The notes beneath the pieces are model-generated. The model made no database searches. It saw nothing but the letters and a program-made list of their open reading frames with translations, and was not told where the DNA came from. A stretch of 64,000 nt of DNA from an uncultured SAR86 cluster bacterium (GTDB taxonomy: Bacteria > Pseudomonadota > Gammaproteobacteria > Magnimaribacterales > AG-339-G14). The stretch is from contig CABZYK010000003.1 of NCBI GenBank assembly GCA_902529935.1, positions 64,787 through 128,786 on the forward strand, in the 5' to 3' direction. Position numbers and translations under genes: made by a program. Below are positions 2,025-43,716 of the stretch, piece by piece; the stretch's first letter is position 1, and every line of letters starts with the position of its first letter.

Positions 2025-3048
2025 TTGTTTTTATAAAGTCAATTTCACTTTGATTATAAGGAGAGCCATTAATCCTAAAAATATCGTGAAACCAAATATC
2101 TGGTTCTGGAAGAGGTTCTCCCTCTTTAACAAAATCTCCTTTATCTTTTAGTTCTTTGATTTTTAAGATGGTTTCCCAGCCAAAATGCGTCTGACTTTTG
2201 CCTGCAACAAGACCCCAGTTATAGGCTCCAATGTTGTGCTCTTTAAAGATGGGTAAGGTAAATTCAAATGTCGTACCAAATTCCCTTGCCATGTATTCAG
2301 TGCACACAAGAGGCCTACCAATTTCTTTTAGTTCTTCAATGATAGGAATTACCTTTTGGTGTTCATAGACATGGAAACTAATCACATCTGATCTTTCTTT
2401 ATTGGTTTGAATATTTTTATCGCCAATCGTGCCATTTAGGCAGGCTGTTAGCGGCTGGGATGGACGAACGTCAAAGGCCCAATCCCACACTTTGGCTAAA
2501 AGAGCGTTAGATTCGTCACCAATACCAAATTGACCCGGTTCGTTGTAGAGATCCCACATTAAGATTCTTTCATCGTCTCGAAAATCATCGAGAATTTCCT
2601 GAGTAAATAATCTAAGTCTAGCTTCTTCTTCCTTATTACCCTTTGCAATTTCTCTGACAATTTCGTGTCCGGGGCTTTGTTTCCAACCCGAATTATGAAC
2701 ACCTCTGACCGGCAAAGGTTGTTTTCCAAGCTTAGGAAAAGGTCTGTGACAATCATCAAACAGGACCAAAATGGGTTTTATATTCAAATCTATGCATATG
2801 GCTAGAATTTCATTAAGTCGTTTTTTAAAATTTTCTTTATCCTGCCAAAGCAAATCATGAAGATAAATTCGTAAACTGTTGAAGCCAATGTCACTTGCCC
2901 AACTGATTTCTCTTTTATTTGTTTCTAAATCAAAGCTTTCGTTTTGAAACATCTCCAACTGATTGATAGCTGAACTTGGTAAATAGTTACAACCTACCAA
3001 CCACTCATGTATTGAGTACCATTCGTTAATGTCTTTTTTATTCCACAC
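2002..3048 (-). CDS. Glycoside hydrolase, GH5-like (cellulase-family)
   Basis: LMWDLYNEPG (acid/base NEP motif) and VCTEYMAREFG (candidate nucleophile Glu) are spaced as in clan GH-A / GH5 enzymes. No signal peptide. Confidence 0.55.
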   Translation of the reverse strand: MWNKKDINEWYSIHEWLVGCNYLPSSAINQLEMFQNESFDLETNKREISWASDIGFNSLRIYLHDLLWQDKENFKKRLNEILAICIDLNIKPILVLFDDCHRPFPKLGKQPLPVRGVHNSGWKQSPGHEIVREIAKGNKEEEARLRLFTQEILDDFRDDERILMWDLYNEPGQFGIGDESNALLAKVWDWAFDVRPSQPLTACLNGTIGDKNIQTNKERSDVISFHVYEHQKVIPIIEELKEIGRPLVCTEYMAREFGTTFEFTLPIFKEHNIGAYNWGLVAGKSQTHFGWETILKIKELKDKGDFVKEGEPLPEPDIWFHDIFRINGSPYNQSEIDFIKTITKELQD

Positions 3049-3704
3049 TATGAATTATTTAAAAATATTTTCTGTATATTTGAGGAATGTTTCTTATAGT
3101 CTGAAACGATAGAAGAGAGAAATTCATGTTTTTTCTCATACGACATGGAAAAGATGTCGACACCTTCAGTGCTTTCTACAAAAGCTTTGTTTGGATCTTT
3201 CCCAGCAAGCAATGAGTGTAGGGAACCGAGAAAGTTCCATCGATAAGTTTCTCTAATATTCTCAAATCGATCTAAAAGTTCTAAAGGGTCTCCCTCTAGC
3301 TCTCTTTCCTTGATGGCTTGTTTGATCATGTTATCGGTAACACCTTTTGTGTTTTCATTCCAAAGCTTCATTAAAAACGTAGGATTTTCCGCGACCCATT
3401 CAAGGATAGGAGACCCGTAAAAAGCATGAAATTGAAAGTAATTCCTTATAAAAATCTGTTTTAGAGGACTAGTTTCATGACCTGTTAAATCGATTACAAA
3501 ATCTTGAATGCTGATGATCACTTCCTTTGTTATTTCTTCAAAAAGATCTGTGATGTCTGAAAAATGATTATAAAAAGTACCGTAGCCTAACTCGGCTTCT
3601 TTGGTGACTTTAGTTACGTCTATGTTTTTATAACCATCCCTTTCAATGAGGCTTGCTGCAGCTTTAATTAACTTATTTCGGTTGGTTGCCTTTCTAGTTT
3701 GCAT
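3048..3704 (-). CDS. TetR-family transcriptional regulator
   Basis: N-terminal HTH segment VTKVTKEAELGYGTFYNHFSD is typical of TetR_N. Its start lies downstream of the hydrolase gene on the same strand, and the ends share 1 nt. Confidence 0.75.
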   Translation of the reverse strand: MQTRKATNRNKLIKAAASLIERDGYKNIDVTKVTKEAELGYGTFYNHFSDITDLFEEITKEVIISIQDFVIDLTGHETSPLKQIFIRNYFQFHAFYGSPILEWVAENPTFLMKLWNENTKGVTDNMIKQAIKERELEGDPLELLDRFENIRETYRWNFLGSLHSLLAGKDPNKAFVESTEGVDIFSMSYEKKHEFLSSIVSDYKKHSSNIQKIFLNNS

Positions 3705-3740
3705 GTTGCCATCTTACATAAAAATGATAAAAAAATGACT

Positions 3741-4613
3741 TTATGTCGATTTATTTTTTTCTGCTACAGCCTTGATGAATTTAGGACCGATTCCACAACA
3801 GCCACCAATTATGGATGCCCCAAGATTTCGCCATTCCTCTGCAAATTCTAAAAATTTTTCAACTGACAAATCTCTTACTGATACTTGAACATTGTTATCA
3901 AGGGTCCAACCATCAGGAACATTAAAAACATTTGGATAGCCGCCAATTGGTTTTTGAGTTAATTCTTTCAATTCTTTAAGCCCCTCAGTAATCGCATAGG
4001 GATCTGTACAGTTAAACAAATATGCCTCAGGCTTTATAGAAGCAGAAGCTTTGAAAGCTTCCTTGATGGACTCTCCGCTCCGCAGTTTATTTTTTTGATC
4101 TTCTTTAAGAGACCATGCGATCCAGACAGGCTTTTCGTTATCAAGATTCTGTAAAGCTTGCATGACATGTTGCATCTCTTTGATCGATGACATAGTTTCG
4201 CAAATAAAAATATCAACATACGGAGTAAGCTCTTTTATAAGAGTTTCATAAATTGGAACAGCATCTTCTTTATCTATGACAAGATCCGGTCGGTAGCTTT
4301 CTTCCAATGGAGGCAAGGAACCAGCAACGATAACTTCTTTTTTGGAATCTTGAACAGCTTCCCTTGCAAGTTCACCGGCAAGACGAATAAGAGCAGGCAT
4401 TTTATCTACAGCATTTTTTTTAGTCAGATAACTTGGAATGGTTGAGTAGGTATTGGTGATTATTAGGTCAGCACCTGAATTGATGTATTCCAAATGAATT
4501 TCTTTAACCAGCTCTGGCGCATCGATAAGGTACTGAGCAGACCAAAGGCCTGAAATCAGATCGGATCTTCTGACCAGAAGTTCATTTCCCATACTTCCGT
4601 CCATTAAAATCAT
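3741..4613 (-). CDS. mmuM: Homocysteine S-methyltransferase
   Basis: N-terminal MILMDGSMGNEL, ITNTYS and the C-terminal zinc-ligand motif IIGGCCGIGP match the Hcy S-methyltransferase (MmuM/BHMT) domain. Confidence 0.75.
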   Translation of the reverse strand: MILMDGSMGNELLVRRSDLISGLWSAQYLIDAPELVKEIHLEYINSGADLIITNTYSTIPSYLTKKNAVDKMPALIRLAGELAREAVQDSKKEVIVAGSLPPLEESYRPDLVIDKEDAVPIYETLIKELTPYVDIFICETMSSIKEMQHVMQALQNLDNEKPVWIAWSLKEDQKNKLRSGESIKEAFKASASIKPEAYLFNCTDPYAITEGLKELKELTQKPIGGYPNVFNVPDGWTLDNNVQVSVRDLSVEKFLEFAEEWRNLGASIIGGCCGIGPKFIKAVAEKNKST

Positions 4614-4625
4614 AATTCTTTAACC

Positions 4626-6683
4626 TTAATTGTTATCTAAAGCGGTATCGTCCGTAGAGAATAAAGCAGCTTGTTCAGGCCTAATCGAACTTATCCAGAT
4701 GGGTGTGGACCAAGCACGTTCTTGAATGAACATAGGTAAATCTTTTCTGATTGTTGAGCCTGTTTTTATGGCATCCCAGGTTGACCATCGACAGGTAGGA
4801 TTCTCCAATACTCTGACGTAATAAAAGTTTTTTTGAGTCGGATCGTAATTCTCATCGGTCCAAATTGTTTTTAGTTCAGCGGCACCTTTATCCATAGAGA
4901 AGGCACAAGTTTCTATATCAACTTTAGCTCCATTATCGGGGCAACGATTAGTCTTGGGATCAACTTTCAGGTCATTTGAGCAAACCACATCGATGACTTC
5001 TTCGTTTGGCATAGCATCGAACTCATCTATGGTTCCTTTGATGATTTGAATTCTTTGAAGTGGAGCACCATTTTTATCCCTCTGCGCCCAAACAATGAAA
5101 GAAGGCTTTTCAACTGAACTATAAGCAAGATCACCACCCATGCTTACGCCTTTTTCATACGCCATAGAAATGATTTCTTCATCACTTAGATCCAGATCAT
5201 CTAGGCCGAAGCCTCCAAAGAATCTTAATTTAATTCTTGTACCTGAAGTTGCGTAAGTTTCCTTTCTTCTAAAGCCAGCAAAAATAGACTCTCTGGTATT
5301 TTCTTCAGCCCAAACTGCTGCAATCCCAGACGCACCCCAGCGGGAGTAGAAAGTATCCAAGAAATATTCTTCATCTTGTTCAACGAATCGATAGAGACCT
5401 TGGGTGTTAACCGATGAAGTAATCTGATCAATGTCTTCCTTAGCAAGGGTGGTTGATCCTCTGAGGAAAGTTTCACCGTCAAGCAGACCCACTTTGGACC
5501 AATAGTTTGATTCATCGTATGAGGAAGCAGCTGTGTGCGTATCGCTAGCTCCAACCAAACCAAATTTGTACGGATTACCTTTTCCTTCCCATTCTGCAAG
5601 CATTCCGCGGAGATAAGCATCTCTGACGTAACCCCCGTATGGAATTGAATAAATATTTTGTCCAATTCTAGAAGGAAAGATTTCAAAATTAGCCCACTCG
5701 TCATTAGGCGATAGAAGAGGATGAGTTTCTGAAGTTCCTTTAACCTGAGTCACCTCTACAAGAGGTTCATTCCGCATTCTAAATTCTGCGTACTCTTTAT
5801 CAACAACATCTCCGTTCCATTTTTCATCTTCAAACATCTGACCATTAGAGCCGTTACTGTTATGTGGTATTGCTATGCTATCGATGCCTTTTTCATCTCT
5901 CAGCATATCCATCCAAGTCCATAAATCTTCAGGATTTATTGAATCAATTCGAGAAAATGGCCTGGTCGGCACTTTCGAACCTTCAAAAATTACGTTTCTG
6001 TGAAGATTTTCTGAATTCGCCATTGAAGAAGTGAATTCATAAGCAATAAAAGTTGTTAATTTTCCTGGTTCATAATTTTCTTCAGCTGAGCGAGCCACAT
6101 CCGCCCATGCTGCTAAATGCGTCCCATGATCGTACATATCGCTTGCTAGTGACAAATTATTCGTTCGCCAAGCGTTGAAAGCACCAATTAGATCGTAATT
6201 TGTGAGAGTTCTGACCATATTTCTAAAAGCACCAACCCTTTGCGGAATTGAGTCTAGATTCACATTTTCAATAGCATTAAGATCATGAAAGTGATCCGCA
6301 CCGGGAAGCCTAGAAGCTTTGGATCCAACTTCAGCCCAACCTGGGACCATGCCCATGAAAAAACCATGATCGGTAACAGCAAAGAAATCTAAGGGTTCTT
6401 GTAATTGTTGGTCAAACCCTAATGGATGCTTAATGGACTCCCCGCGAGCAAATCGATAAGCATCATCCGGGGTAGCGGTTGTACCAAAAATATAGGCATC
6501 AAAAGAATGCTTGGTGTGAACGTGAAGATCACCAAAAAAAACGTCCCTATCTTCATTGTAAGCAGGCCTGGCATTCTCTCTTTTGCTTGTGTCTGCCTCT
6601 TCTGAAAAGTCTTTTGTCTGTTTGAGTGAGTCTGAACAACCAATGAAAATTATTGTCAGCGATATCAGTAAAATTTTAAACAT
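4626..6683 (-). CDS. DUF3604-like lipoprotein (PHP-like metal-dependent hydrolase fold)
   Basis: The ATG at 6683 gives the lipoprotein signal MFKILLISLTIIFIGC. FFGDLHVHTKHSFDAY is the hallmark N-terminal motif of DUF3604 proteins, from memory. Confidence 0.6.
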   Translation of the reverse strand: MFKILLISLTIIFIGCSDSLKQTKDFSEEADTSKRENARPAYNEDRDVFFGDLHVHTKHSFDAYIFGTTATPDDAYRFARGESIKHPLGFDQQLQEPLDFFAVTDHGFFMGMVPGWAEVGSKASRLPGADHFHDLNAIENVNLDSIPQRVGAFRNMVRTLTNYDLIGAFNAWRTNNLSLASDMYDHGTHLAAWADVARSAEENYEPGKLTTFIAYEFTSSMANSENLHRNVIFEGSKVPTRPFSRIDSINPEDLWTWMDMLRDEKGIDSIAIPHNSNGSNGQMFEDEKWNGDVVDKEYAEFRMRNEPLVEVTQVKGTSETHPLLSPNDEWANFEIFPSRIGQNIYSIPYGGYVRDAYLRGMLAEWEGKGNPYKFGLVGASDTHTAASSYDESNYWSKVGLLDGETFLRGSTTLAKEDIDQITSSVNTQGLYRFVEQDEEYFLDTFYSRWGASGIAAVWAEENTRESIFAGFRRKETYATSGTRIKLRFFGGFGLDDLDLSDEEIISMAYEKGVSMGGDLAYSSVEKPSFIVWAQRDKNGAPLQRIQIIKGTIDEFDAMPNEEVIDVVCSNDLKVDPKTNRCPDNGAKVDIETCAFSMDKGAAELKTIWTDENYDPTQKNFYYVRVLENPTCRWSTWDAIKTGSTIRKDLPMFIQERAWSTPIWISSIRPEQAALFSTDDTALDNN

Positions 6684-8099: not shown

Positions 8100-8405
8100 T
8101 CAACTTACTTAAAAGAACATTTCCCCCTAGACCCTTCAGTTCTCCCAATTTATACCTGAAGGGTCTAATCTAAAACAGTACTTTATGGATTACGAAACCT
8201 TTCAAAAACTCAGAAACCTTCTTATCATGTTATTTTTTACGACAGGTTTCTCTATCGGATACTTTATATCTCAAGTTATCATATAGCGTGACCAATCGCT
8301 GCGCTAACTGCAAAAAAAAACTTCCTTTACATTTTTTTGAAAAGGACCGTCACGGTCTAATGGGATTGAAAAATATTTGCAGGCCTTGTTTCTCTTCTCT
8401 ATCTG

Positions 8406-9833
8406 CTAAGACGAGCAACTAAGTTGCTGGTTTTGTTGTTCTTTCGGAGCAGGCTTACAATACTTTTCCATCGACTTGCCCAAATCATCGTAAGGGTTGC
8501 TTAAAACTTTAGCCAATTGATCTATCTTCTCTGATTTTCCTTCTTCTGCATCTTCAATAGCTGATTGTGCTAGATAGTTTCTGAGAACATATTTTGGATT
8601 ATTTTCATTCATCACTAATATTGATTGCTCAATGTTATTTTGATCTTTGTCTAATCTAGCTTTATAAGAAGTAAGCCAAGTGGAAAAGTTATCAGACAAT
8701 TTAAATTCGTCTGAAGAAGTGATGATCATAGATAGGTCTCTGAAGGTATTGGTATAGTCAAGTTTTTCTGTTTCCATTATCTCAAATAGCCCAAGAAGAA
8801 GATCATAGTCGCTATCCAGAGCGCTTTTAAAACCGAGTTTCTTACGATATTTTTCAATCAAGGAATCATAAAAATAATCATTGAATTTACTCAAAATATC
8901 TCTTAATTCCGATTCGCTGAAGAGGTCAATTAATGCCGAGGCAAGTGCATAGCAGTTCCATTCCGCAATGCTTGGCTGATTTGAAAAGCTATAGCGTCCT
9001 TGTGAATCGGTATGATTACAAATGTAGTTAGGGTTATAGGTTTCCATGAAAGCATACGGACCGTAATCAAAAGTCTCGCCGAGAATAGACATATTATCGG
9101 TATTCATAACTCCATGATTGAATCCAACACTTTGCCAAGCTGAAACCATGCAGGCTGTCTTTTTTATAGTTGCATCAAAGAATAATAAGTATTTATCAGA
9201 ATCTTGTTTTGTATCTGGGTAGTAGAAGTCAATTACATGATCAAGTAACGTTTTTACGCCATCTGCAATTTTATTGTGGTGGAAATATTCAAAGTGTCCA
9301 AATCTGATATGAGTTTTAGCAGTTCTAACAATCATTGCTCCACGTTCAGTTTCTTCACGCATCACCGGTTCGTTGCTGCCGAAAAGCATTAAAGATCTTG
9401 AGCTTGGAATGCCTAATCCAAACATAGCTTCGCCGCACAAATGCTCTCTCACAGATGAGCGGATAACAGCTCTGCCATCACCAAACCTCGAATAAGGAGT
9501 TTTTCCCGCACCCTTAATATGAAGATCAATAAGTCCTTCAGGCGAATCAATTTGGCCAAAGAGGATTCCTCGGCCGTCACCTAACTGGTTCACCCAATTA
9601 CCAAATTGATGACCTCCATAAACCATTGCTAAGGGAGAGGCTTTTTCAAAACTCTTGTTACCATTAAAAATTTGCATCAATTCTTCTGGATCGTCTTGAA
9701 TGCCTAAACTTTTTGCTAAGTCATGATTAAAGTGAAGCAAATAAGGTTGATCAAAAGAAGACCAACTTTGCTTAGTATAAAAATTACCAGGCAATTTGGA
9801 AAAAGGATTTGTAAATTTTATGTTTTCAAACAT
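8406..9833 (-). CDS. selO: Protein adenylyltransferase SelO (YdiU / UPF0061)
   Basis: YGGHQFGNWVNQLGDGRGILFGQ, HIKGAGKTPYSR, FGHFE and GVMNTDNMSILGETFDYGP are the conserved SelO pseudokinase blocks. Confidence 0.85.
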   Translation of the reverse strand: MFENIKFTNPFSKLPGNFYTKQSWSSFDQPYLLHFNHDLAKSLGIQDDPEELMQIFNGNKSFEKASPLAMVYGGHQFGNWVNQLGDGRGILFGQIDSPEGLIDLHIKGAGKTPYSRFGDGRAVIRSSVREHLCGEAMFGLGIPSSRSLMLFGSNEPVMREETERGAMIVRTAKTHIRFGHFEYFHHNKIADGVKTLLDHVIDFYYPDTKQDSDKYLLFFDATIKKTACMVSAWQSVGFNHGVMNTDNMSILGETFDYGPYAFMETYNPNYICNHTDSQGRYSFSNQPSIAEWNCYALASALIDLFSESELRDILSKFNDYFYDSLIEKYRKKLGFKSALDSDYDLLLGLFEIMETEKLDYTNTFRDLSMIITSSDEFKLSDNFSTWLTSYKARLDKDQNNIEQSILVMNENNPKYVLRNYLAQSAIEDAEEGKSEKIDQLAKVLSNPYDDLGKSMEKYCKPAPKEQQNQQLSCSS

Positions 9834-20663: not shown

Positions 20664-21071
20664 TTAGAGTTTCAGCACTTGAAGTTTAGTTGCGTTTTGT
20701 CCATTCGAAACAATCATCTTTTTGATTTTTTCAAAATCAATTTTTGTGTTCATTTGGTATGCAATAAAAACCTTACCTTTATTCAAATCAACATCAATCT
20801 TGGCCACGGTTTTATCTTTTTTGAAAGTTTTTTCGATTCCTTGCGCGCAAAAGTCACAAACCATTCCTTTGACGCTGACCACTGCAATTTGTTTATCTTT
20901 CAAACCTTCAACAAATTTATCAAAACGTTCGACATCAACCTCTAACTTTTCGCCATCAACCATTTGCTCATGCAGATGACCTTCATGAGAATGATGATCG
21001 TGATGATCGTAATTATCTTGTGCACTAACAAATGTAGATACAAGAAACACGATAATAAAAAATATTTTCAT
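20664..21071 (-). CDS. Exported heavy-metal-associated (HMA) domain protein with a His-rich N-terminus
   Basis: The ATG at 21071 has GGAG upstream and a signal peptide (MKIFFIIVFLVSTFVSA). His-rich DHHDHHSHEGHLH is followed by the HMA motif GMVCDFCAQGIE. Confidence 0.75.
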   Translation of the reverse strand: MKIFFIIVFLVSTFVSAQDNYDHHDHHSHEGHLHEQMVDGEKLEVDVERFDKFVEGLKDKQIAVVSVKGMVCDFCAQGIEKTFKKDKTVAKIDVDLNKGKVFIAYQMNTKIDFEKIKKMIVSNGQNATKLQVLKL

Positions 21072-21081
21072 AAACATCTCC

Positions 21082-21684
21082 TTAAAACCTATACATAATA
21101 TGGGCATCCCATTCTGTTTGATCGTTGTAACCAAACTCGATGAGAAAGTTACCTTTAAAAAATTTTAAAACTGGAAAAGTTGACCAATCTCCAACCAGAG
21201 TATTTTTTTTTGTTTTTATCATAATCCAAGTGTGAAAATCCCCGTAAGCACCCAAATAGGGAGCAACTCCAACTTGCAAAAATTGATCAGTGTAATTTTT
21301 AAGTGAATTTTTTACATCCCGATAATTAAAGCCAATAAACCATCTTCGAGTCTCCCAGTCTCCGTGCAATCCATAAAAATGCCCATCCAAGCCATCCGAG
21401 CTAAGACCAGACTGGAAATAGAGATTCCCTTGAGAATTCTCAGTATTACGTCTATTTAGTAAATAGGTAAATCTGAAGTAACTGTATTGTTGATTAAAAA
21501 ACTTATCTTCAACGCTTTCAATGCCAACCGAATATCGATAAGTAGGCGAGAAATGATAATAGAGAGAGTTATACATGTTTCCGGAAAAAGCCATCAGGGT
21601 GGAACCTCCTGAATACGAAATAGGCCTCGCCTCACTGATCAAAGTGAAAAAAAACATTGTAAATACAAGTAGCTTAATACCCAT
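21082..21684 (-). CDS. Secreted protein, probable small outer-membrane beta-barrel
   Basis: Signal peptide, alternating aromatic/polar strands and a C-terminal ...HIMYRF (terminal Phe) typical of OMPs. First gene of the CsoR operon. Confidence 0.5.
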   Translation of the reverse strand: MGIKLLVFTMFFFTLISEARPISYSGGSTLMAFSGNMYNSLYYHFSPTYRYSVGIESVEDKFFNQQYSYFRFTYLLNRRNTENSQGNLYFQSGLSSDGLDGHFYGLHGDWETRRWFIGFNYRDVKNSLKNYTDQFLQVGVAPYLGAYGDFHTWIMIKTKKNTLVGDWSTFPVLKFFKGNFLIEFGYNDQTEWDAHIMYRF

Positions 21685-22613: not shown

Positions 22614-23387
22614 ATGAGAAGAATAATTTTAAGTAGAAAAGGCTTTGATTCGTCTTCTGGTGGGGTGGCTTCTCCCATTTTTGCAGATGGAAGCTTATGT
22701 TCTCTGCCGATTCCTTTCTCAGGACCGGCACCGGATAAGTTTAAAAACGTCAGTGTGAACGGTATTCGATGTATCGATGCCCTCAAAGAATCCAAGGCAA
22801 AAAGTAAACCAAGCGACAATTGCCATTACGATCCAAATCTCGAAACAGGACTTTTTGGACAGGCTAGCAGTTCACAATCCGAGTTACGTAACAATCAAGT
22901 TGGACCGGGCGATCTTTTTTTATTTTTTGGATGGTTTAAAAATTATTCGGAAGGTGGAAGAGACTTGCATCACATTTTTGGCTGGCTTCAAATAGATAAA
23001 ATAATCGATGGTAATGAAGCGATTCAACAGTACTTTAAAAATAAAAAAAAGATGCATCCGCATGCTTTTTATAGATTTAGCAATAATTGCCTTTACGTTG
23101 GATCAAAAAATTTAATTTTAGGAAATAAAAAAACTCCTCATAAAGGTTTTGGGCATTTCAAAAAAACACATAATGATTTAGTGCTAACAAAAGATCAGGC
23201 AACCCGTTCTGTTTGGCAATTACCAAAAAAATACTTTGCAAATTCAGATCCTTTTTTAAACAGACTCAAGTGGATAGATAAGAATGAATGCATTACGCAT
23301 TGCAAAGGTCGTGGCCAAGAATACATAATGGATGTGACGAACCACCCAAAATTAATCAGGTGGTTGCATCACATTTTCCAGGGTTAG
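22614..23387 (+). CDS. Hypothetical protein; the N-terminus resembles the 'nucleotide modification associated domain 3' (Nmad3) family, from memory
   Basis: MRRIILSRKGFDSSSGGVASPIF.DGSLCSLPIP is very like the N-terminus I recall for Nmad3-type proteins. Unverified without an HMM search. Confidence 0.4.
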   Translation: MRRIILSRKGFDSSSGGVASPIFADGSLCSLPIPFSGPAPDKFKNVSVNGIRCIDALKESKAKSKPSDNCHYDPNLETGLFGQASSSQSELRNNQVGPGDLFLFFGWFKNYSEGGRDLHHIFGWLQIDKIIDGNEAIQQYFKNKKKMHPHAFYRFSNNCLYVGSKNLILGNKKTPHKGFGHFKKTHNDLVLTKDQATRSVWQLPKKYFANSDPFLNRLKWIDKNECITHCKGRGQEYIMDVTNHPKLIRWLHHIFQG

Positions 23388-23417: not shown

Positions 23418-24053
23418 TCAAACATACATTTTGAACTGATCTTCATCAAAAATCGGATCTAGAGACAACATTAATCTGTTTTCATATATGTTTGGAGATC
23501 GGTGAACAACTCCATTGAACTGACTTTGCCAAGTTCCGCCTTTTAACAACGACCATTCCCCCGCTTTAAATTGCTTTACTTTCTTTTTTTCTTTTAATGG
23601 GGCATCAAGATTTGTTCTGTCGTCAAAAAGTTTCCAATCAACATCTTTATTTGCGATCCATTCGGTCCCTCCACCAGAAAGTGTAATTAGCAATCTGCAT
23701 GGAATTTGATCAACATGAAACCTAGGACACATGGGTTTATTGAGGGTTAAGAGCCTAACCCCAACGTATTTGCAATCTAAAGTTTCATGCAGCATGCCAC
23801 AGCTCTCTTTTATTTGGTCAGCAAGCATTTTTTTTGCCTCAGAATCAATTGATGTTGATAGCAGTTCATCTACCACTCTCAAATCATTTAGAGATTGAAT
23901 CCATTGAAGTTCGAGGTCTTCCCTTGTGTTGAGAATTTTTTTTCCCAAAGTATCTAAATAACTTGATTGAGGATGAGCCATGCACACTAGTTCGACATCT
24001 TTTGAATAAATATCTGCAAAACTTTCTAACTTGTTGCTAAAAATTGATCTCAT
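23418..24053 (-). CDS. DUF1826-like protein (commonly adjacent to COG0523 GTPases)
   Basis: Position immediately downstream of the COG0523 gene, and size. The family call is from memory of this conserved pairing. Confidence 0.45.
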   Translation of the reverse strand: MRSIFSNKLESFADIYSKDVELVCMAHPQSSYLDTLGKKILNTREDLELQWIQSLNDLRVVDELLSTSIDSEAKKMLADQIKESCGMLHETLDCKYVGVRLLTLNKPMCPRFHVDQIPCRLLITLSGGGTEWIANKDVDWKLFDDRTNLDAPLKEKKKVKQFKAGEWSLLKGGTWQSQFNGVVHRSPNIYENRLMLSLDPIFDEDQFKMYV

Positions 24054-24071
24054 GATATTTTTATCCCCAAT

Positions 24072-25277
24072 TTACTTCCACGCTGGAAAAGGATCATTGA
24101 AACTAGACCAGTACTCTCTTCCTTTAAGAACATCTTCCTCACTTAATAGACAGGCATCCAAAGCAGCAATCATTTCTTCTTTTTGAAGTCTTTGACCGAT
24201 AAAGACTAACTCTTGACGCATATCTCCAAACGGCTCAACCCATTGTTTCTTAATAGACTCAAGATATTCTTCATCTTGTGGCCAATCTTTTTCTGGCACT
24301 GCTTTCCAAAACATCCCCGCAAAACCGTAACGAGCAATTCCCCCAGCTTGACTCCATTGTCCGGCAAATTCTGGACGAGTGGCCAACCAGAAATATCCTT
24401 TTGAACGAATTAATTTTCCATACCTTTCTGTTCCATGAAGAAAATTATGAAATTTTTCAGGATGGAAAGGCCTGCGTGCTTCATAACAAAAGCTCGAAAT
24501 TCCGTACTCTTCTGTTTCAGGTACATGTTCACCTCTCATTTCTTTAAGCCAACCAGGAGATTGTTGCGCACGCATAAAATCAAAAGAATTCGTATTTAGA
24601 ACCTCATCGATATCGACATTTCCGTTTTCAATTGGAATGATTTTTGCATCTGTATTGAGTGTTTTTATGATTGCCGTTAAACGCTCTACCTCTTTTGTTG
24701 TGACAAGATCAATTTTGCTGATAAGAATAATATCTGCAAACTCAACTTGATCAACCAGCAAATCAGCCACGCTTCGCTCATCATCTTCACCCATTGACTC
24801 GCCTGCTTCCTGAAGGCTTTTGGCTTGATCGTAATCTTTAACAAAATTTACAGCATCTACAACCGTTACCATCGTATCTAATTTGGCAACATCGGATAAT
24901 GAAATCCCATCTTCATCTGCAAAAGTAAAAGTTTCAGCTACAGGTAAGGGCTCTGAAATACCTGTTGACTCAATAACTAAATAGTCGAATCTCTTTTCCT
25001 GGGCTAGTTTTGTTACTTCTTCTAATAAATCTTCTCGGAGAGTGCAACAAATGCATCCATTACTCATTTCAACGAGTTTCTCCTCGCTGCGATTTAGAGA
25101 AACTTCGTTTTGAACAATTGCAGAATCAATATTTATTTCGCTCATATCGTTAACGATAACGGCAACTTTTTTATTTTCTCTATTATTTAAAATATTACTT
25201 AGTACGGTTGTTTTTCCCGCACCAAGAAACCCTGATAAAACCGTTACAGGGAGTTTTGAATTTAAAACATTTTCCAT
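24072..25277 (-). CDS. COG0523 / CobW-family GTPase metallochaperone (ZigA/YeiR-like, zinc-homeostasis type)
   Basis: Walker [10 protein letters not shown], metal-binding CICCTLR, and a CobW C-terminal domain. Confidence 0.85.
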
Positions 25278-25319
25278 CTTTCACACCTACCAAAGTGATT
25301 AGAATTAACTTTTATGACG

Positions 25320-25345
25320 TATCGCCCAAAATTAATTGGGCGATA
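25320..25345 (-). other. 10-bp perfect stem-loop (TATCGCCCAA-N6-TTGGGCGATA) between the receptor and the COG0523 gene
   Basis: Read directly. No clear U-run follows on the transcribed (minus) strand, so it may be an intercistronic attenuator or an RNA-processing/stability element. Confidence 0.5.
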
Positions 25346-25356
25346 GCATCACATTT

Positions 25357-27687
25357 TTAGAAGCGTAAGCTGAAGCGCAAACCTACGTTTCTGCCAGGTA
25401 GGGGGACCTGATCTTTCACAAACGAATTATGATTCCTAGCTGCTTCATCCAGCAGGTTTGAAGCAAAGAACGATAATTTCAAATCAACATTTGGATCTAA
25501 AGGCACCGTACCTGAGATAGTAAAGTCCACCATTTGATATCCCTCTGTTGCTGTTTCATTTAAAGCAAGTTTTGTTTGCTCTTCGACGTCTTTAAGAGAC
25601 AAAGTAGTTTTCAAGTCATCATTACTGTAAGAAACATCAAAGAAATTTCTAGCAGGCGTCATTCTAGGAATGTAACCGCCTGATGCAAATTTACCCTCCA
25701 CTGAATCTCTACCGAAGGAAACTTCAACTTCACCATTGTCCACATAAATAACGGTACCGAACTGAAGTTCATAACCAGTAAATTCAGCGTCCTTCTGTAA
25801 GTAATCAGACTTTATTAATCCGCCGTGATCATCGTGACCTTCTTCTTCATGATCATCCTCCGTCTCATCTTGTAGGTAGATGTAATCAGTGATGTTGTTC
25901 GCATACACCGAGACGTTTCCAAACCAGTTGTCAATGTCAAATTCTAGAGTTAGATCAATGTTATTTGATCTCTCAGCATTAAGGTTGACGTTACCGGTTT
26001 CAAGCCTGCCGGTAGCTAAATGCGGACCGTTCATGAAAAGTTCTAATGCTGAAGGCGCTCTTTCTACAGAAGCTGCACCAATAAGAAACTTAACGTTTTC
26101 ATCAATATCGTACGTGTAAGTTAATGCAAGACTCGCACTAGACATATCAACATTGTAGAAAGTCTGTTCTCCGTGCTCTTCTTCATGTTCATCGTGATGT
26201 TCTTCTTCTTCGTGCTCATCGTGGTCTTCTTCACCTTCGTGCTCATCATGCTCTTCTGTTTCAGTAATGGATCCATTTCTGCTCACAGAGTCGTAACGAA
26301 CACCAAAATCAAGGTGATGATCGGAAAAGTCTTTAGACATAAAGTAACCAACCGTATATTCATCCGATTTAGTAGGATTCATGAAAGCTTCATGACCAAC
26401 AATGGCTTGATCTTCTTTGGCAAGATTAAAAGAAATTTTTTGACCTAAGTTTGATGTTGAAAGATCAAGAATCGTTCCTATTTCGTAAGAGTCATTCGAG
26501 AAAGTGGTTGGTCCCTCTTCACCGTGTCCATGCTCATCCTCATGCTCATCGTGATCTTCTTCCCCTTCGTGCTCATCATGATCCTCTTCACCTTCGTGCT
26601 CATCATGACCTTCTTCTTCTGCATGCCCTTCAGTAAGAGAGTAATCAGTTCCTCTTATGAAGTAATTAATCGACTTAACTGCTCCTGTATCAAAGTTATA
26701 AGCCCCTTGAACGTTTACTTCGTTGGAATCAGTCACAGAAAATATTCTTTCACCTTCGTGCTCATCATGGCCTTCCTCTTCGTGCTCATCATGATCCTCT
26801 TCACCTTCGTGCTCATCATGGCCTTCTTCCTCGCCATGACCACCGTGACCTTCACCATGGTAAGGAATACCGTAATGAGTCTCTAAAATATTTGCAGATG
26901 CACCGATGTATCCCCAATCCTCGACAACCGAAAAACCAAATTTATGAGACTCACGCTCGTAATCAGAATTTTCTAAGTATCCAAGCTCTTCATCGTGATG
27001 TTCTTCTTCTTCGTGCTCGTCATGTTCTTCTTCGCCTTCGTGCTCGTCATGTTCTTCTTCAGAATGCATAACTGCTCCATCGGGCACATCGTAATTTTCA
27101 AAATCGGTGTTTTCATAGGAGTAGCTAAAATTGATTCCATTAACAATGTTGGTAATTCCAAAAGCTTCTGCTGTTCCCCTATTTACGGATTGTTTTTCAA
27201 AATCAACGTTGGCGTTTAACCCATCAAAATCTTGTCTCGCTATGGTGTTATCAACAATATTAATGATTCCACCTACACCACCGTTGGCGTATAAAAGTGA
27301 TGAAGGACCACGAACAACCTCAATTTGTTGCACGTTGTTCATATCGATCTCAACAGGGTGATCAACTCCGATACCAGCAACATCTCGATTAACCATTCCG
27401 TTTTTGAGAATTTTAATTCTGGGACCCGACAATCCTCTGATAACAGGTTGCCCAGTGGCAAAGCCATAGTCTGAATTGGCTACTCCAAGCAGGTCATCGA
27501 TAGATTCACCTAGACTTGCTCTTCCTTGATCGTCTAAATCAACTCCAGATAAAACATGAACTGGATCACCTAAGTCACTTAAATTCTGATCTATTAATGA
27601 AGCGGTAACTGTCACCTCTTCTTCATCTTGAGCAAGCAGAAATGGTGCAGTAAATAAAAATAAAAATAAATAAATAAAATGTTTCAC
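25357..27687 (-). CDS. TonB-dependent outer-membrane receptor with five His/Glu/Asp-rich insertions (ZnuD-like zinc receptor candidate)
   Basis: The GTG at 27687 has GGAGG upstream. Signal peptide, plug-domain blocks (VIRGLSGPRIKILKNG, IEVVRGPSSLLYANG) and a C-terminal GRNVGLRFSLRF with terminal Phe. Confidence 0.85.
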   Translation of the reverse strand: MKHFIYLFLFLFTAPFLLAQDEEEVTVTASLIDQNLSDLGDPVHVLSGVDLDDQGRASLGESIDDLLGVANSDYGFATGQPVIRGLSGPRIKILKNGMVNRDVAGIGVDHPVEIDMNNVQQIEVVRGPSSLLYANGGVGGIINIVDNTIARQDFDGLNANVDFEKQSVNRGTAEAFGITNIVNGINFSYSYENTDFENYDVPDGAVMHSEEEHDEHEGEEEHDEHEEEEHHDEELGYLENSDYERESHKFGFSVVEDWGYIGASANILETHYGIPYHGEGHGGHGEEEGHDEHEGEEDHDEHEEEGHDEHEGERIFSVTDSNEVNVQGAYNFDTGAVKSINYFIRGTDYSLTEGHAEEEGHDEHEGEEDHDEHEGEEDHDEHEDEHGHGEEGPTTFSNDSYEIGTILDLSTSNLGQKISFNLAKEDQAIVGHEAFMNPTKSDEYTVGYFMSKDFSDHHLDFGVRYDSVSRNGSITETEEHDEHEGEEDHDEHEEEEHHDEHEEEHGEQTFYNVDMSSASLALTYTYDIDENVKFLIGAASVERAPSALELFMNGPHLATGRLETGNVNLNAERSNNIDLTLEFDIDNWFGNVSVYANNITDYIYLQDETEDDHEEEGHDDHGGLIKSDYLQKDAEFTGYELQFGTVIYVDNGEVEVSFGRDSVEGKFASGGYIPRMTPARNFFDVSYSNDDLKTTLSLKDVEEQTKLALNETATEGYQMVDFTISGTVPLDPNVDLKLSFFASNLLDEAARNHNSFVKDQVPLPGRNVGLRFSLRF
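25819..27066 (-). repeat. Five in-frame intragenic repeat cassettes encoding (H-D-E-H-E-G-E-E-D)n tracts
   Basis: Near-identical DNA units (gtgctcatcatg[ag][tc]cctcttcaccttcgtgctcatcatg...) lie at ~25819-25866, 26161-26262, 26509-26625, 26749-26859 and 26986-27066. Confidence 0.85.
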
Positions 27688-27728
27688 AAAAACCTCCAAA
27701 AAAATTAAAAATTAAAAAAAATTAAAAT

Positions 27729-28025
27729 TTAATTTCTTGGTGGTGCGCGAATAGAAAGTTGATTATAAGAAAGGGTGATTTCACTTGTCTGATAAGCATC
27801 AAGGAAATCAAAGGAAATGGCTGTTGGATTAACAACGGTATCGTCTTGCACGTACTCAATTTGTTCAGCTAAACAAGTTGAACAATCTTCAGTTAGTTCA
27901 ACTGCATGCTCATTGTGAACGTGCTCACCGTGATCCAATTCAAAATGCGATGTCTCGTGCGAGATAATTCCCGCTGAAAAGACGAGCGCAAAAAGAATTG
28001 CAAACAGCTTAAATTTCATGGGCAT
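27729..28025 (-). CDS. Small exported His-rich protein (98 aa)
   Basis: Signal peptide, then HETSHFELDHGEHVHNEH. It lies directly upstream of the receptor on the same strand. Confidence 0.6.
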   Translation of the reverse strand: MPMKFKLFAILFALVFSAGIISHETSHFELDHGEHVHNEHAVELTEDCSTCLAEQIEYVQDDTVVNPTAISFDFLDAYQTSEITLSYNQLSIRAPPRN

Positions 28026-40346: not shown

Positions 40347-40476
40347 TGAGGTTCAATCTAGGGCCCTCAGAAAATAGAACACTTCATAAAAATATCACAT
40401 AGGAATTAGATACCTATATTTCTCTATAATTTAAATAAATTGGAAATAATGAAAGAATTTGATAAAAAATAATCAT

Positions 40477-43400
40477 ATGAGTTGGTTTTTAGAAAGAGAT
40501 AGAGCCGATTTTCTTGAAAAGGAAGTTAAATCGTCTATAGATAGAAAAAAACAGGAAGTGAATAGGAATATCACTTATAAAGATCATGTAAATATCCTCA
40601 CTGAATTTATGGATCAAGGGTATATTCACGAAAATTTTTTAATAAATGTAATATGGTTTTTTCATAGATGTAGATTAGATCAATCGTATTCAAACATTTT
40701 AGAATCATTCATTGAGAATTTTCAAAAGGCAGTTGAGTTACAAAAGGCAATTGAAACTGAAGCGCCTTCTTCAGGTAGTGGAGATTTTTTAGCATACACC
40801 AATACGCTTATTAACATCTTTACTTTAGAATTCCAGCAAAATCGATTGGACACTCCCTCTATAGCTTCCTGCCTCTCGGCTGAAGAAAAAGATAGGATAA
40901 ATAAAAAAATTACAGATTTTGAAGAAATATCTTTTCTGAACGAAAAAGCAGGATACTTAGATAAGACTAAGCAGATGAAAATTTTAGAAAAATTCTCGAA
41001 AAGTTCACATTTTGAGAAAGTATCGTATCAACTTGACTTTTTAATGGACATTGCGACCGGCTCAGGAGATGAATCAACTATTGCTGAAGCTCCTCTAAAC
41101 TACTTACTAGAAGAAAATGATGTAATTTCAGATGATTATGGAATATTTGGTTTAGTTGATGATGTTTATGCGATATCAGAGAGTTATTACAAATTAAGAA
41201 ATAGGAATGATCTAGGTCGACTCGTACAAAGCTTTAATCATGAACATGAAAATTTTTATATTCCCAATCTTCAGGATGAGAATAAACCTATATCTTTAGT
41301 TAATGTTGAAGATATAGTAAAAGCCGCGCTGGCAAAGGAAAATGAAGATTATTTTAAGCGGCTCCTTGTTCTCTCAGACATCGGACCTCTACCTATCTTC
41401 ATTGCTTTGGGAAAAGCAATAATTGAGAGACAAAAGCACTCTCACTTTGGTCAAGATGACGTGAAATTTGATTCTGGTGAAAATTTGGTCTTCTTTAATG
41501 AAAAGAATGATACAAGAATCGTAGCAACTTATGCGGGTAAGCGTGGCCAGGATTTTGATCAAAATTTATTATCAGATAACAAAGATGATGAGGTTTTAAA
41601 CGATATGTATGCATTATGGGTTGATAAGGAAAAAAGCTCCATACAGTATGTAACAGAAGCCTTCATAAAAACTGCAAAGCCTACTTCTAGACGTATTTCA
41701 ACAAAAAAAAATATATATAAATTCTTTAATTCTCTTGAGGAAAAACCTCTCAATCATTGGGCAAGGTATAACTTTCCTGAAGGCATTACATCAATTAGAC
41801 ATGAGAAAAAATTATTTATCCTTGGCCAAAAAAATAAAATTTTAGATTTCCTTGATTTAAATTTATTCAACAAATCAATCAAATCATGGTTAGGGCTAAG
41901 AGAATTTACTAAAGATGGGAAATGTATAAATCATGAACAACAAGCAAATCAATTATTTCCTGACCCCTATATATATCTTTTTGCTGACTCTGGAGCATTT
42001 ACCGATGCTCTTGAAAATCAATGGCATGAAACTTGCAGTGAAACTGAAAGATCAGAACCAGAATTAATAATTACATGTGAAGACAATTATTTAAGAGACG
42101 AATATCTTTTAGATACTTTAAAAAGATGTGAGGCTGATGTATTGGTTCTATCATCATTTATTAATAACTATGAAATAAATAAGACAGCTGCTAATGGTTT
42201 TGATCAGATACCAGTTAAGCCAAATGATTACCTATCAGACTTGAATATTAGTGGAATTGATCCTGTAAGTAGGTTTTTTAGTAGATCAAAAGATTTTAAA
42301 ATCTCTATTGAGAATACAAAAAATAATTTTATTGAAAACTTTTATTCTATTAGAAATCTTCTAAAAGATTTATTGTTGGAAGAGAGGCACAAATTTATCA
42401 AGCGTTGTCTTTATAGGATTATTGAAAATCTACAAAATAGAATACTGCCACTAAATGAAGAAGAAAAAGTAAATTTCCAAGAGAATTTTGAAATTCTATT
42501 AAATGAACTTCACGAAATAAGTGCTAATAATTCAAAAGTCAAAAGAGCAATAAATCTTTTGGCTGACTTAAAGCAAGATGCAGAAGATTTTCATAAATTT
42601 GAAGAAATTAAAGATTTTTGCATTAAAAACAATGAACTTAAGACAGTAATCCTTTGTCACAAAAGACAAAAAGAAAGGCTAAATTTTTTAATTTCTGAGG
42701 AAGGATTAAATGCCACGGCTGAGACCTTTACGAATCTTGAGAAGATAGAAATTGTAGGAAAAATCTTAGTTGCAATAGCTCAAAAAAGGGAAATTTCACA
42801 AAAACTAAAGATGTATCGTTATGCTCAGGAGATTTGTTTTCTTTTAAATGATGAAGAGCGAAAGAGTCACCTTAATACGCTCAAAAGGCTTGAAAAATAT
42901 TTTAATAATTATTTTCCTTCATCTGAGGTTAAAGAAGAAATAATAGAGGAAGTTGAGGATTTCAGTTCAAGTTTCACTGAAGAATCAATCGACTTTACCT
43001 ATACCGCTGCTAAATCAAAGTTCTCAGGAGAAGCTGATTCAAGTGTGGAAGCAAAAATGCTGCTTTTGGATGACGAACAGATTTATTTTTCCAGAAATAG
43101 AAGAGATGTCCTTTTCATATCCAGAAGAAGGGGGGATTCGATAGAATATGGCAAAACTGAAGATTTACTATCGGGAGATAAAATTGTGATCTCGGAAGAA
43201 TTCAGTGGCAATGAAATTTTACATCTTTTAATGAATAAAGAAGAAAAATTGAAATATCCTGAATTAGAAGGGCAAGCTCAAATTTGGCAGGATAAGTTAA
43301 AAGAGTATAAAAATGAAAATCATATGGACATATATCAATTAACTGCAGCTTTAAAGGACAATGGAGTTGATAGACATTTCGCTACGGTAAGAAATTGGCT

Positions 43401-43716
43401 AAGTGACCCAGAAACAATTTCGCCTAGGTCTTTTTTTGATCTTCAACAAATTTTTAAACTAGTTGGGGAAAAAGATTCTAAAGTTTTTTATGATTGTAAA
43501 AATAAAGGAAAAGAAGTTTATAGACTGAGAAATGAATGTAAAAAAAGGCTTTTAGAAAAGCTTCAAGATGTTCGGTTTGATGTTGATCAAGATGAAATCT
43601 CATTGATTATTAATGAAAAGCAGATTTCCTTTGGTGTTTATGAGATTAATGCTACTAAAGATATAGTTGTGGAATCATCTCATTTACACAAAATACAAAA
43701 TCTAGATCAGTTCTAA
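40477..43716 (+). CDS. Orphan 1080-aa protein (a DrmE-like role is possible by context only)
   Basis: The ATG at 40477 is preferred over the TTG at 40459. No NTPase or nuclease motif recognised. The segment YLLEENDVISDDYGIFGLVDDVYAI resembles the DUF1232 motif. The stop overlaps the next start (TAATG). Confidence 0.7.
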   Translation: MSWFLERDRADFLEKEVKSSIDRKKQEVNRNITYKDHVNILTEFMDQGYIHENFLINVIWFFHRCRLDQSYSNILESFIENFQKAVELQKAIETEAPSSGSGDFLAYTNTLINIFTLEFQQNRLDTPSIASCLSAEEKDRINKKITDFEEISFLNEKAGYLDKTKQMKILEKFSKSSHFEKVSYQLDFLMDIATGSGDESTIAEAPLNYLLEENDVISDDYGIFGLVDDVYAISESYYKLRNRNDLGRLVQSFNHEHENFYIPNLQDENKPISLVNVEDIVKAALAKENEDYFKRLLVLSDIGPLPIFIALGKAIIERQKHSHFGQDDVKFDSGENLVFFNEKNDTRIVATYAGKRGQDFDQNLLSDNKDDEVLNDMYALWVDKEKSSIQYVTEAFIKTAKPTSRRISTKKNIYKFFNSLEEKPLNHWARYNFPEGITSIRHEKKLFILGQKNKILDFLDLNLFNKSIKSWLGLREFTKDGKCINHEQQANQLFPDPYIYLFADSGAFTDALENQWHETCSETERSEPELIITCEDNYLRDEYLLDTLKRCEADVLVLSSFINNYEINKTAANGFDQIPVKPNDYLSDLNISGIDPVSRFFSRSKDFKISIENTKNNFIENFYSIRNLLKDLLLEERHKFIKRCLYRIIENLQNRILPLNEEEKVNFQENFEILLNELHEISANNSKVKRAINLLADLKQDAEDFHKFEEIKDFCIKNNELKTVILCHKRQKERLNFLISEEGLNATAETFTNLEKIEIVGKILVAIAQKREISQKLKMYRYAQEICFLLNDEERKSHLNTLKRLEKYFNNYFPSSEVKEEIIEEVEDFSSSFTEESIDFTYTAAKSKFSGEADSSVEAKMLLLDDEQIYFSRNRRDVLFISRRRGDSIEYGKTEDLLSGDKIVISEEFSGNEILHLLMNKEEKLKYPELEGQAQIWQDKLKEYKNENHMDIYQLTAALKDNGVDRHFATVRNWLSDPETISPRSFFDLQQIFKLVGEKDSKVFYDCKNKGKEVYRLRNECKKRLLEKLQDVRFDVDQDEISLIINEKQISFGVYEINATKDIVVESSHLHKIQNLDQF

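Follow-up and report, generated by a model that had tools for sequence, protein, structure and literature searches.

The stretch of SAR86 DNA analysed here (64,000 nucleotides (nt), called the window below; all coordinates are positions in it) carries on its minus strand, at 23418–28025, an operon in which a TonB-dependent receptor resembling ZnuD of Neisseria meningitidis is preceded by a small leader open reading frame (ORF) ending in the motif RAPP. The chances appear about even that this operon specifies a zinc-type importer whose translation is gated by a leader peptide that stalls the ribosome; the reading builds on the observed anatomy of the locus, the topology of the receptor loops, conservation throughout the receptor family, pairing of the leader RNA with the receptor Shine–Dalgarno sequence and Zur boxes in front of orthologues. 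ZnuD, the leader peptide CruR, RAPP arrest and ZigA are each already known; the pairing of this receptor family with a CruR-like leader unrecognised by Pfam seems to be undescribed, as do the large marine ZnuD-like family with five loops rich in His, Asp and Glu (H/D/E), the apparent alternation of leader and Zur box, and the masking of a Shine–Dalgarno sequence by the RAPP codons themselves.

The order on the minus strand is leader ORF (27729–28025; 98 amino acids (aa); an exported His/Cys protein containing HETSHFELDHGEHVHNEH), receptor gene (25357–27687; plug and 22-strand barrel), hairpin, COG0523 gene and DUF1826 gene. Gene order and strand are those of the original prediction, which had been made from the letters of the window without database searches; the receptor length given there, 777 aa, was off by one. 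The mechanically called receptor ORF starts at TTG 27699 (780 aa); since this TTG lies inside the Shine–Dalgarno sequence, GTG 27687, 5 nt past GGAGG, is most likely the start, and the receptor comprises 776 aa.

Receptor identity: the Pfam Plug (1.6e-15) and barrel (1.3e-20) domains were found. The best NCBIfam family was ZnuD (NF038289; 216.6 bits, curated cut-off 950), followed by heme and hemoglobin receptor families; the best PDB sequence match was ZnuD 4rdr (4.9e-36 by sequence, 2.8e-55 by profile), and Foldseek also gave 4rdr as the best fold match (E = 2.3e-28), the copper transporter OprC being second. The earlier description of the receptor as ZnuD-like is thus upheld by family, PDB-sequence and fold comparison alike; ZnuD (4rdr/4rdt/4rvw) has the same plug and 22-strand barrel, although identity to it is only about 19–20%. 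The N-terminus, read from the sequence, consists of a predicted signal peptide MKHFIYLFLFLFTAPFLLA, the cleavage region, QDEE and, just past it, the TonB box EVTVTAS (27598–27618); E23, E24, V27, T28 and S30 are conserved among aligned receptors. Counts over receptor relatives come from an alignment of 78 full-length members, and family-wide counts for neighbouring sequence from 81 fetched loci (about 1 Mb; single loci are given by L numbers).

ZnuD binds one zinc ion via Asp-99 and His-100 of the plug, Glu-340 and His-499 (PMC4557270). D109-H110 of the plug apical loop (27358–27363) align with Asp-99 and His-100, and H556 in NGPHLATG (26020–26022) with His-499. A sequence search with the strand 6–11 region gave no ZnuD alignment and did not place the counterpart of Glu-340; E353, in E353-G-H355 where strand 7 ends and loop L4 starts (26623–26631), is the probable counterpart by position only. 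D109, H110, E353, H355 and H556 are invariant in 78/78 relatives. No Cys occurs in 46 of the 78 receptors, that of the window included, so an OprC-type thiolate copper site is absent from these. Membership of the CrtA family was considered and rejected: only the plug matches structure 9rvq (E = 1.7e-5), whose identity with CrtA is unconfirmed, and CrtA, a copper transporter under CruR control, sits in a different cluster (PMC12914433). Judged by these sequence comparisons, the receptor is most likely a ZnuD-type importer of a divalent transition metal, with Zn2+ favoured.

Five cassettes are inserted in the barrel: cassette 1 (26980–27069) in extracellular loop L2, between strands 3 and 4; cassette 2 (26746–26838) in L3, strands 5–6; cassette 3 (26515–26625) in L4, strands 7–8; cassette 4 (26164–26265) in L6, strands 11–12; and the short, divergent cassette 5 (25822–25872) in L8, strands 15–16. 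They amount to 149 residues (34 His, 22 Asp, 67 Glu), and their H/D/E sum of 123 agrees with the five cassettes and 'well over 100' such residues first reported. Topology was taken from two AlphaFold2 runs (12 and 68 sequences; mean predicted local distance difference test score (pLDDT) 54.8 and 60.3), which gave the identical 22 strands, pLDDT of barrel strands being 70–88; in both models the cassettes are low-confidence stretches at odd-to-even strand junctions, and the gaps between strands alternate short and long, as expected from standard topology. In TonB-dependent barrels, odd-to-even junctions lie on the extracellular side. Of the two placements that the original prediction had left open, extracellular loops and periplasmic turns, all five cassettes take the former and none the latter. 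The start of cassette 2 aligns with HSHE of ZnuD, which the crystal structure shows as cluster 1 in extracellular loop 3 (PMC4557270); as an alignment of sequences, this is independent support for the loop assignment. Flexible His/Asp/Glu clusters of that ZnuD loop have been likened to a 'fishing net' (PMC4557270); ZnuD has two short clusters in one loop, whereas H/D/E residues here occupy five loops.

Length variation in the 78-member alignment is confined to L2, L3, L4, L6 and L8, all of them H/D/E-rich; the remaining six loops and ten periplasmic turns hold their length within a few residues. The H/D/E count in the five loops has a median of 103 (range 33–162), and the window receptor, with about 125, ranks 69th of 78. 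The cassettes had been called extreme: the window receptor is indeed rich, but the five-cassette design is common to the family, in which it is a rich example and not the richest. H/D/E composition is held across classes while loop sequence drifts. Between close single-cell genomes the cassettes differ in length (L3 24–43, L4 25–40, L6 27–31 residues), so that the variation in length and unit number anticipated for them is real. At the DNA level a 27-nt (9-aa) period was found in four cassettes (2.7–3.4 copies, 76–89% matches), with exact repeats of up to 43 nt between cassettes 2 and 3 and 30 nt between cassettes 1 and 4; the repeats reported earlier exist, and the wording 'near-identical' was somewhat generous in view of these match values and the divergent fifth cassette. 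Metagenome receptors of 589–704 aa (P0002–P0015; L081 1720–3834), 90–98% identical to that of the window, are in-frame joins between different cassettes, a change that would cost the barrel two to six of its strands. All come from short-read assembly, each as a cluster of one sequence; in L081, the one form inspected, the junction lies in a 71-nt repeat common to two cassettes, and a 100-N gap interrupts zigA. They were rejected as real deletion alleles: assembly collapse is the simpler and probable, if unproven, reading.

The family is large. A scan of one genome per species found at least 406 candidate stretches encoding receptor relatives, the closest being from a SAR86 single-cell genome (95% identity); hosts are SAR86, Porticoccaceae/SAR92, Luminiphilus and Woeseia, together with the alphaproteobacterial PS1 and OCS116 clades. 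The protein database gave thousands of matches, and relatives at 47–51% identity carry the same cassettes in the same places. In contrast to ZnuD, this family comes from marine free-living bacteria, and in most of its members the RAPP leader ORF apparently replaces the Zur operator.

Leader ORF: directly upstream of the receptor, 73 of the 81 loci have an ORF ending in [R/Q][A/G]PP plus 1–8 residues, the distance from RAPP to the stop being most often 2 residues; in the window RAPP forms residues 93–96 of 98 (codons CGC GCA CCA CCA, 27738–27749), which is the putative ribosome-arrest site and the 5' arm of a hairpin. All leaders have a signal peptide, [H/D]x3H, usually E-C-x-x-C, and the terminal RAPP. 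In the window the candidate metal ligand pair H23-x3-H27 is encoded at 27945–27959 and C48-S-T-C51 (CxxC) at 27873–27884. Overall identity is 15–25% and only about six positions are conserved: H27, C48, P95 and P96 never vary and R93 and A94 hardly do; at position 23 stands either His or Asp. The aligned leaders all have the first Cys, and complete CxxC occurs in 58 of 73 leaders; in all 58 it lies 40–43 residues, mostly 41 (as in the window), before RAPP, the residues in between varying freely. The second Cys is missing from leaders of Porticoccaceae (L016, L021, L026, L028, L032, L039, L043, L047–L049, L060, L065), and one subclade ends in QAPP (L020, L024, L034, L038, L042, L062, L067, L006). 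A leader profile run against 1.84 billion representatives gave 75 proteins, nearly all of about 90 aa and none of CruR size; in a further profile search none of the 120 listed matches carried a Pfam domain, and DUF2946 (PF11162) did not match the window leader. The leader is CruR-like in design, its homology to DUF2946 being unproven from sequence. The original prediction implied that the small His-rich protein is a metal-handling partner of the receptor; most likely it acts instead as an arrest peptide in regulation. Within the leader ORF, towards its 3' end, stands a promoter-like site, CAGACA-N18-TATAAT (10/12 matches; 27762–27791, minus strand); transcription from it, were it active, would cover the receptor without the leader start. 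The promoter and terminator scan performed no better than on shuffled sequence and did not locate the leader promoter.

RNA hairpin over the receptor Shine–Dalgarno sequence: the leader and receptor of the window are separated by 41 nt (10% G+C), and spacers in most loci are AU-rich and 31–52 nt long. The window RNA that begins at the R codon and runs to the receptor start folds with z = −3.95 and −4.67, and the predicted hairpin (27685–27749, minus strand) joins the RAPP codons and leader tail to the Shine–Dalgarno and start region, CCACCA of the Pro-Pro codons pairing with and sequestering GGAGG (27693–27697). For 69 loci the median z of this stretch was −3.1. Pairing was scored when at least 3 Shine–Dalgarno bases were paired to the first 22 nt from the R codon, the stretch that a RAPP-stalled ribosome would cover; it was found in 59/68 loci versus 8/47 control gene pairs (other pairs with similar spacers from the same loci), and cognate arms paired 2.75 kcal/mol better than arms of unrelated loci (p = 3e-8). 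Porticoccaceae spacers are 72–91 nt long with inner GC-rich hairpins, and there the Shine–Dalgarno sequence pairs with the last leader codons and the stop. In some loci U residues follow the leader–receptor hairpin, which could also attenuate transcription. The leader 3' half has C 34 versus G 21; this C>G bias would be compatible with a weak Rho-loading (rut) region and a contribution of Rho.

In SecM-secA, MifM-yidC2 and VemP-secDF2, a ribosome stalled at the end of the leader melts a hairpin that hides the next ribosome-binding site. The geometry here matches; those leaders sense protein export, whereas a metal signal is suggested here by the metal-transport gene that follows and by the conserved His and Cys of the leader. 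CruR (DUF2946) of Bordetella pertussis shares with the window leader its place as a small exported ORF, first and directly upstream of a TonB-dependent transporter, the CxxC, a C-terminal RAPP a few residues before the stop, and a CxxC-to-RAPP distance that is fixed while the sequence between is not (PMC9426467; PMC12992588). The arrest role of RAPP is known from CruR (PMC9426467, PMC12992588); there Pro-Pro occupies the P and A sites during the stall (PMC12992588), and relief comes when the nascent chain senses copper via CxxC (PMC9426467); RAPP upstream ORFs with signal peptides are enriched before TonB-dependent receptors (PMC12992588). Differences are also plain: the window leader is unmatched by PF11162; leaders here have about 90–98 aa, not 145, a spacing of 41 residues, not 45, and an additional invariant His ([H/D]x3H); the spacer is AU-rich and 31–52 nt (72–91 nt in Porticoccaceae) as against 162 bp and GC-rich; and the receptor downstream is ZnuD-like, not CrtA or OprC. 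The RAPP codons sequester the Shine–Dalgarno sequence here, suggesting translational control and not Rho-dependent termination.

Zur boxes: scans of the window with the E. coli-type and alphaproteobacterial consensus gave nothing near the operon, where the original prediction had suggested looking for one. The best match to the Zur core, at 41567, lies inside a 1085-aa ORF (40459–43716, plus strand) and was set aside as probably due to chance; no Fur-family gene was found in the 64-kb window, which says little about the rest of the genome. The perfect core TGTTAT-N3-ATAACA occurred only twice in about 1 Mb of loci, 48 nt (L007, a complete SAR86 genome) and 87 nt (L044, overlapping a −10 box) upstream of the receptor, and these are two of the three complete loci that have no leader ORF. 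The link of the receptor to the zinc regulon, first drawn from gene content, is thereby supported in orthologues, in agreement with ZnuD. The apparent alternation in the sampled loci suggests that leader and Zur operator do the same job. In L061, the third complete locus without a leader, an 8-bp inverted repeat lies at the zigA start.

zigA and DUF1826: ZigA, a zinc-metallochaperone GTPase of COG0523 (24072–25277, minus strand; Walker A 25206–25223, CICC 25044–25055) scored 701.4 bits with NCBIfam NF038288, above the equivalog cut-off of 600, has GAGKTT and CICC, and contains the Pfam domains cobW and CobW_C; the DUF1826 protein (23418–24053, minus strand), the start of which lies 18 nt past the end of zigA, matched PF08856 with E = 1.7e-36 over model positions 2–202/202. 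Both gene calls of the original prediction stand. DUF1826 is Zur-regulated in Francisella (PMC5786701), and predicted Zur clusters of Pseudomonas pair COG0523 with DUF1826 (PMC2770081). The close spacing of the two genes is as in those clusters (PMC2770081); different are the lack of a Zur box before the module, its place behind the receptor hairpin and its loss in close relatives. The module is joined to the receptor in two lineages, downstream in the window clade and upstream in Porticoccaceae L061, and is missing from L004, L005 and most family loci; it is a facultative, dispensable add-on. In L003 (about 8400–8480) zigA is gone and only the last DUF1826 codons are left (…SLDPIFDEDQFKMYV), a deletion scar of recent loss of the module in some SAR86 strains. 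The hairpin between receptor and zigA (25313–25352, core 25320–25345, minus strand; 10-bp stem TATCGCCCAA/TTGGGCGATA) begins 5 nt past the receptor stop, folds with z = −4.96, has no U-tract and was not called by the terminator scan. All close relatives retain it through compensatory changes (TATCGCCCAA, AACCGCCCGA, AACCACCCGA; in L003, L004, L025), those with zigA behind it and those without, and it is probably a leaky terminator or an mRNA-stabilising element. An Rfam scan of the whole window gave zero family matches.

The mechanism that we propose would run as follows. Five disordered His/Asp/Glu surface loops would catch the ion and hand it on to plug D109/H110, E353/H355 and H556, which together would make up a buried site for one ion; from there TonB-driven movement of the plug would let it into the periplasm. 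Expression would be set in this operon by the 98-aa leader ORF and not by a Zur operator: a ribosome translating the leader would stall at the C-terminal RAPP and cover the RAPP codons, which otherwise pair with the receptor Shine–Dalgarno sequence, so that receptor translation would be possible only during the stall. Under metal sufficiency the emerged part of the nascent leader, with [H/D]x3H and the CxxC 41 residues before RAPP, would bind metal; this would free the stall, the hairpin would re-form and receptor synthesis would be switched off. ZigA and DUF1826 would be an optional zinc-sparing module reached by read-through of the U-less hairpin. More specifically, but only tentatively, the leader may be a zinc-sensing nascent peptide, the zinc counterpart of CruR, whose [H/D]x3H…CxxC binds Zn2+ with release of the RAPP stall and re-pairing.

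The same architecture could serve copper, a CruR-type leader sensing it via CxxC and the receptor importing Cu2+ for heme-copper oxidases. His-rich peptides bind Cu2+ more tightly than Zn2+ (Irving–Williams series). OprC ranks second among the fold matches; the window encodes an exported His-rich HMA protein 2.3 kb off; in L011, L012, L041 and L056 the genes immediately upstream, on the same strand, are SCO1/SenC, CtaA (COX15) and CyoE/UbiA; MerC-like proteins with Cys/His tails adjoin the receptor in about nine loci; CruR, the sole tested leader of the kind, responds to copper through CxxC (PMC9426467), and known cruR operons hold Sco and PCuAC chaperones (PMC9426467, PMC12914433). Copper is a serious competitor but the less likely choice: the receptor is much nearer ZnuD than OprC and touches 9rvq, itself not confirmed as CrtA, with its plug only; most members have neither Cys nor a Cys/Met-type site; the leaderless orthologues carry Zur boxes and not copper-regulator sites; ZigA and DUF1826 are zinc-regulon markers (PMC5786701); and the leader, with its extra invariant His, is not matched by the DUF2946 model. 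Import of heme or of a metal chelate, with variable acidic loops that mainly vary the surface against phages or grazers, we consider very improbable. The second-best NCBIfam places of heme and hemoglobin receptors speak for it, as does the ERAP...H...GNxNL motif of the receptor, which we take to resemble the FRAP/NPNL boxes of heme receptors; so do the cassette lengths, different between near-identical strains, and the import of chelated copper by CrtA (PMC12914433). ZnuD, however, has the same motifs and binds zinc, not heme (PMC4557270); H/D/E composition kept despite drift indicates selection on chemistry and not on antigenic novelty alone, and zinc-regulon neighbours and Zur boxes point to a metal ion.

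Two further explanations concern the leader. It might be an arrest or coupling element that senses no metal (a monitor of Sec export, or plain translational coupling), metal control, if any, lying elsewhere. This appears distinctly unlikely, since the invariant His and Cys and the fixed CxxC-to-RAPP distance are difficult to account for unless some ligand or folding event acts a set way from the peptidyl-transferase centre, leader and Zur box exclude each other in the sampled loci, which suggests the same job, and CruR regulation does not need the signal peptide (PMC9426467); it gains from the signal peptide on all leaders, from the first discovery of RAPP arrest peptides as protein-export monitors (PMC12992588), from the Porticoccaceae leaders without CxxC and from a 31–52 nt spacer that lets any terminating ribosome open the hairpin, with re-initiation to follow. 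That the small protein acts in the periplasm or at the surface as a metal-binding partner of the receptor, be it a metallochaperone or a metallophore-like capture protein, would fit its export, its His-rich sequence with CxxC and its constant place beside the receptor, but is highly improbable: about six positions are conserved, the 41 residues from CxxC to RAPP vary while their number is fixed, RAPP lies 1–8 residues before the stop in 73 loci and its codons pair with the Shine–Dalgarno sequence of the next gene; the CruR protein was undetected by proteomics, and its recombinant production failed (PMC9426467).

Several points weigh against the zinc importer gated by a stalling leader, the SCO1/CtaA/CyoE and MerC-like neighbours just described, which hint at copper or some thiophilic metal, among them. 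Arrest, metal response, identity of the metal, sensing site and transport are steps that we infer; the only characterised leader of this type senses copper and works via Rho, not by Shine–Dalgarno masking. The QAPP subclade exists although an R-to-A change kills CruR arrest, and PF11162 reaches 2 of 29 leader relatives, with E = 0.01 or weaker and under the cut-off. The ZnuD family score (216 versus 950 bits) is far below its cut-off. The plug was poorly modelled in both AlphaFold runs (pLDDT 22–50), and the loop assignment therefore rests on strand order and not on three-dimensional detail. Pro-Pro codons (CCNCCN) complement GGAGG by nature, so some of the pairing is expected in any case. RNAalifold on a plain MAFFT alignment of 36 leader–receptor junctions gave no consensus structure; AU-rich arms of variable length do not align, and per-locus z-scores, control gene pairs and the cognate/non-cognate duplex test were used in its place.

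Neighbouring genes: an exported, His-rich HMA/CopZ-like protein (Pfam scan) is encoded at 20664–21134 (minus strand), and a 200-aa ORF at 21082–21684 (minus strand), with a C-terminal YRF like that of small outer-membrane barrels, overlaps its gene; their synteny is kept in the close relatives L001, L002 and L004, and the two may be a second metal-handling pair near the operon. An Nmad3 (nucleotide-modification-associated) gene at 22614–23387 (plus strand) is convergent with DUF1826; homologues were found in eight fetched loci, mostly adjoining the receptor, the L007 copy (5136–5942) being directly upstream of it. The SCO1/CtaA/CyoE genes of the four loci named above lie at about 3000–5560 and belong to one SAR86 subclade. 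The MerC-like proteins (L059 8277–8675, L063 8156–8560, L079 6457–6879, L031 5179–5589, and others) are four-helix membrane proteins with CxxHC in the first helix and a C-terminal C-x4-C-x-C-H tail, and might serve the receptor's uptake path at the inner membrane.

In the surface ocean few heterotrophs are as abundant as SAR86 and its neighbours, which have to obtain zinc or copper at picomolar free concentrations; the founding SAR86 genome paper makes no mention of either metal, and a full-text literature search found no paper joining arrest peptides, zinc and TonB-dependent receptors. Strain HTCC2207 of SAR92, whose leader is that of locus L016, carries the leader–receptor system and is in culture. 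Should metal be sensed by the leader, nascent-peptide metal sensing would reach beyond copper and have a second mode of output, translational instead of Rho-dependent, and its sequence would be a marker of metal limitation readable in metatranscriptomes. Should the zinc-sensing reading be true, Zn2+ would be bound as the site leaves the ribosome or the Sec channel, and SAR86, SAR92 and PS1 would have given up the Zur operator in favour of a translational metal switch that is complete in about 340 nt and moves with the receptor gene across bacterial classes.

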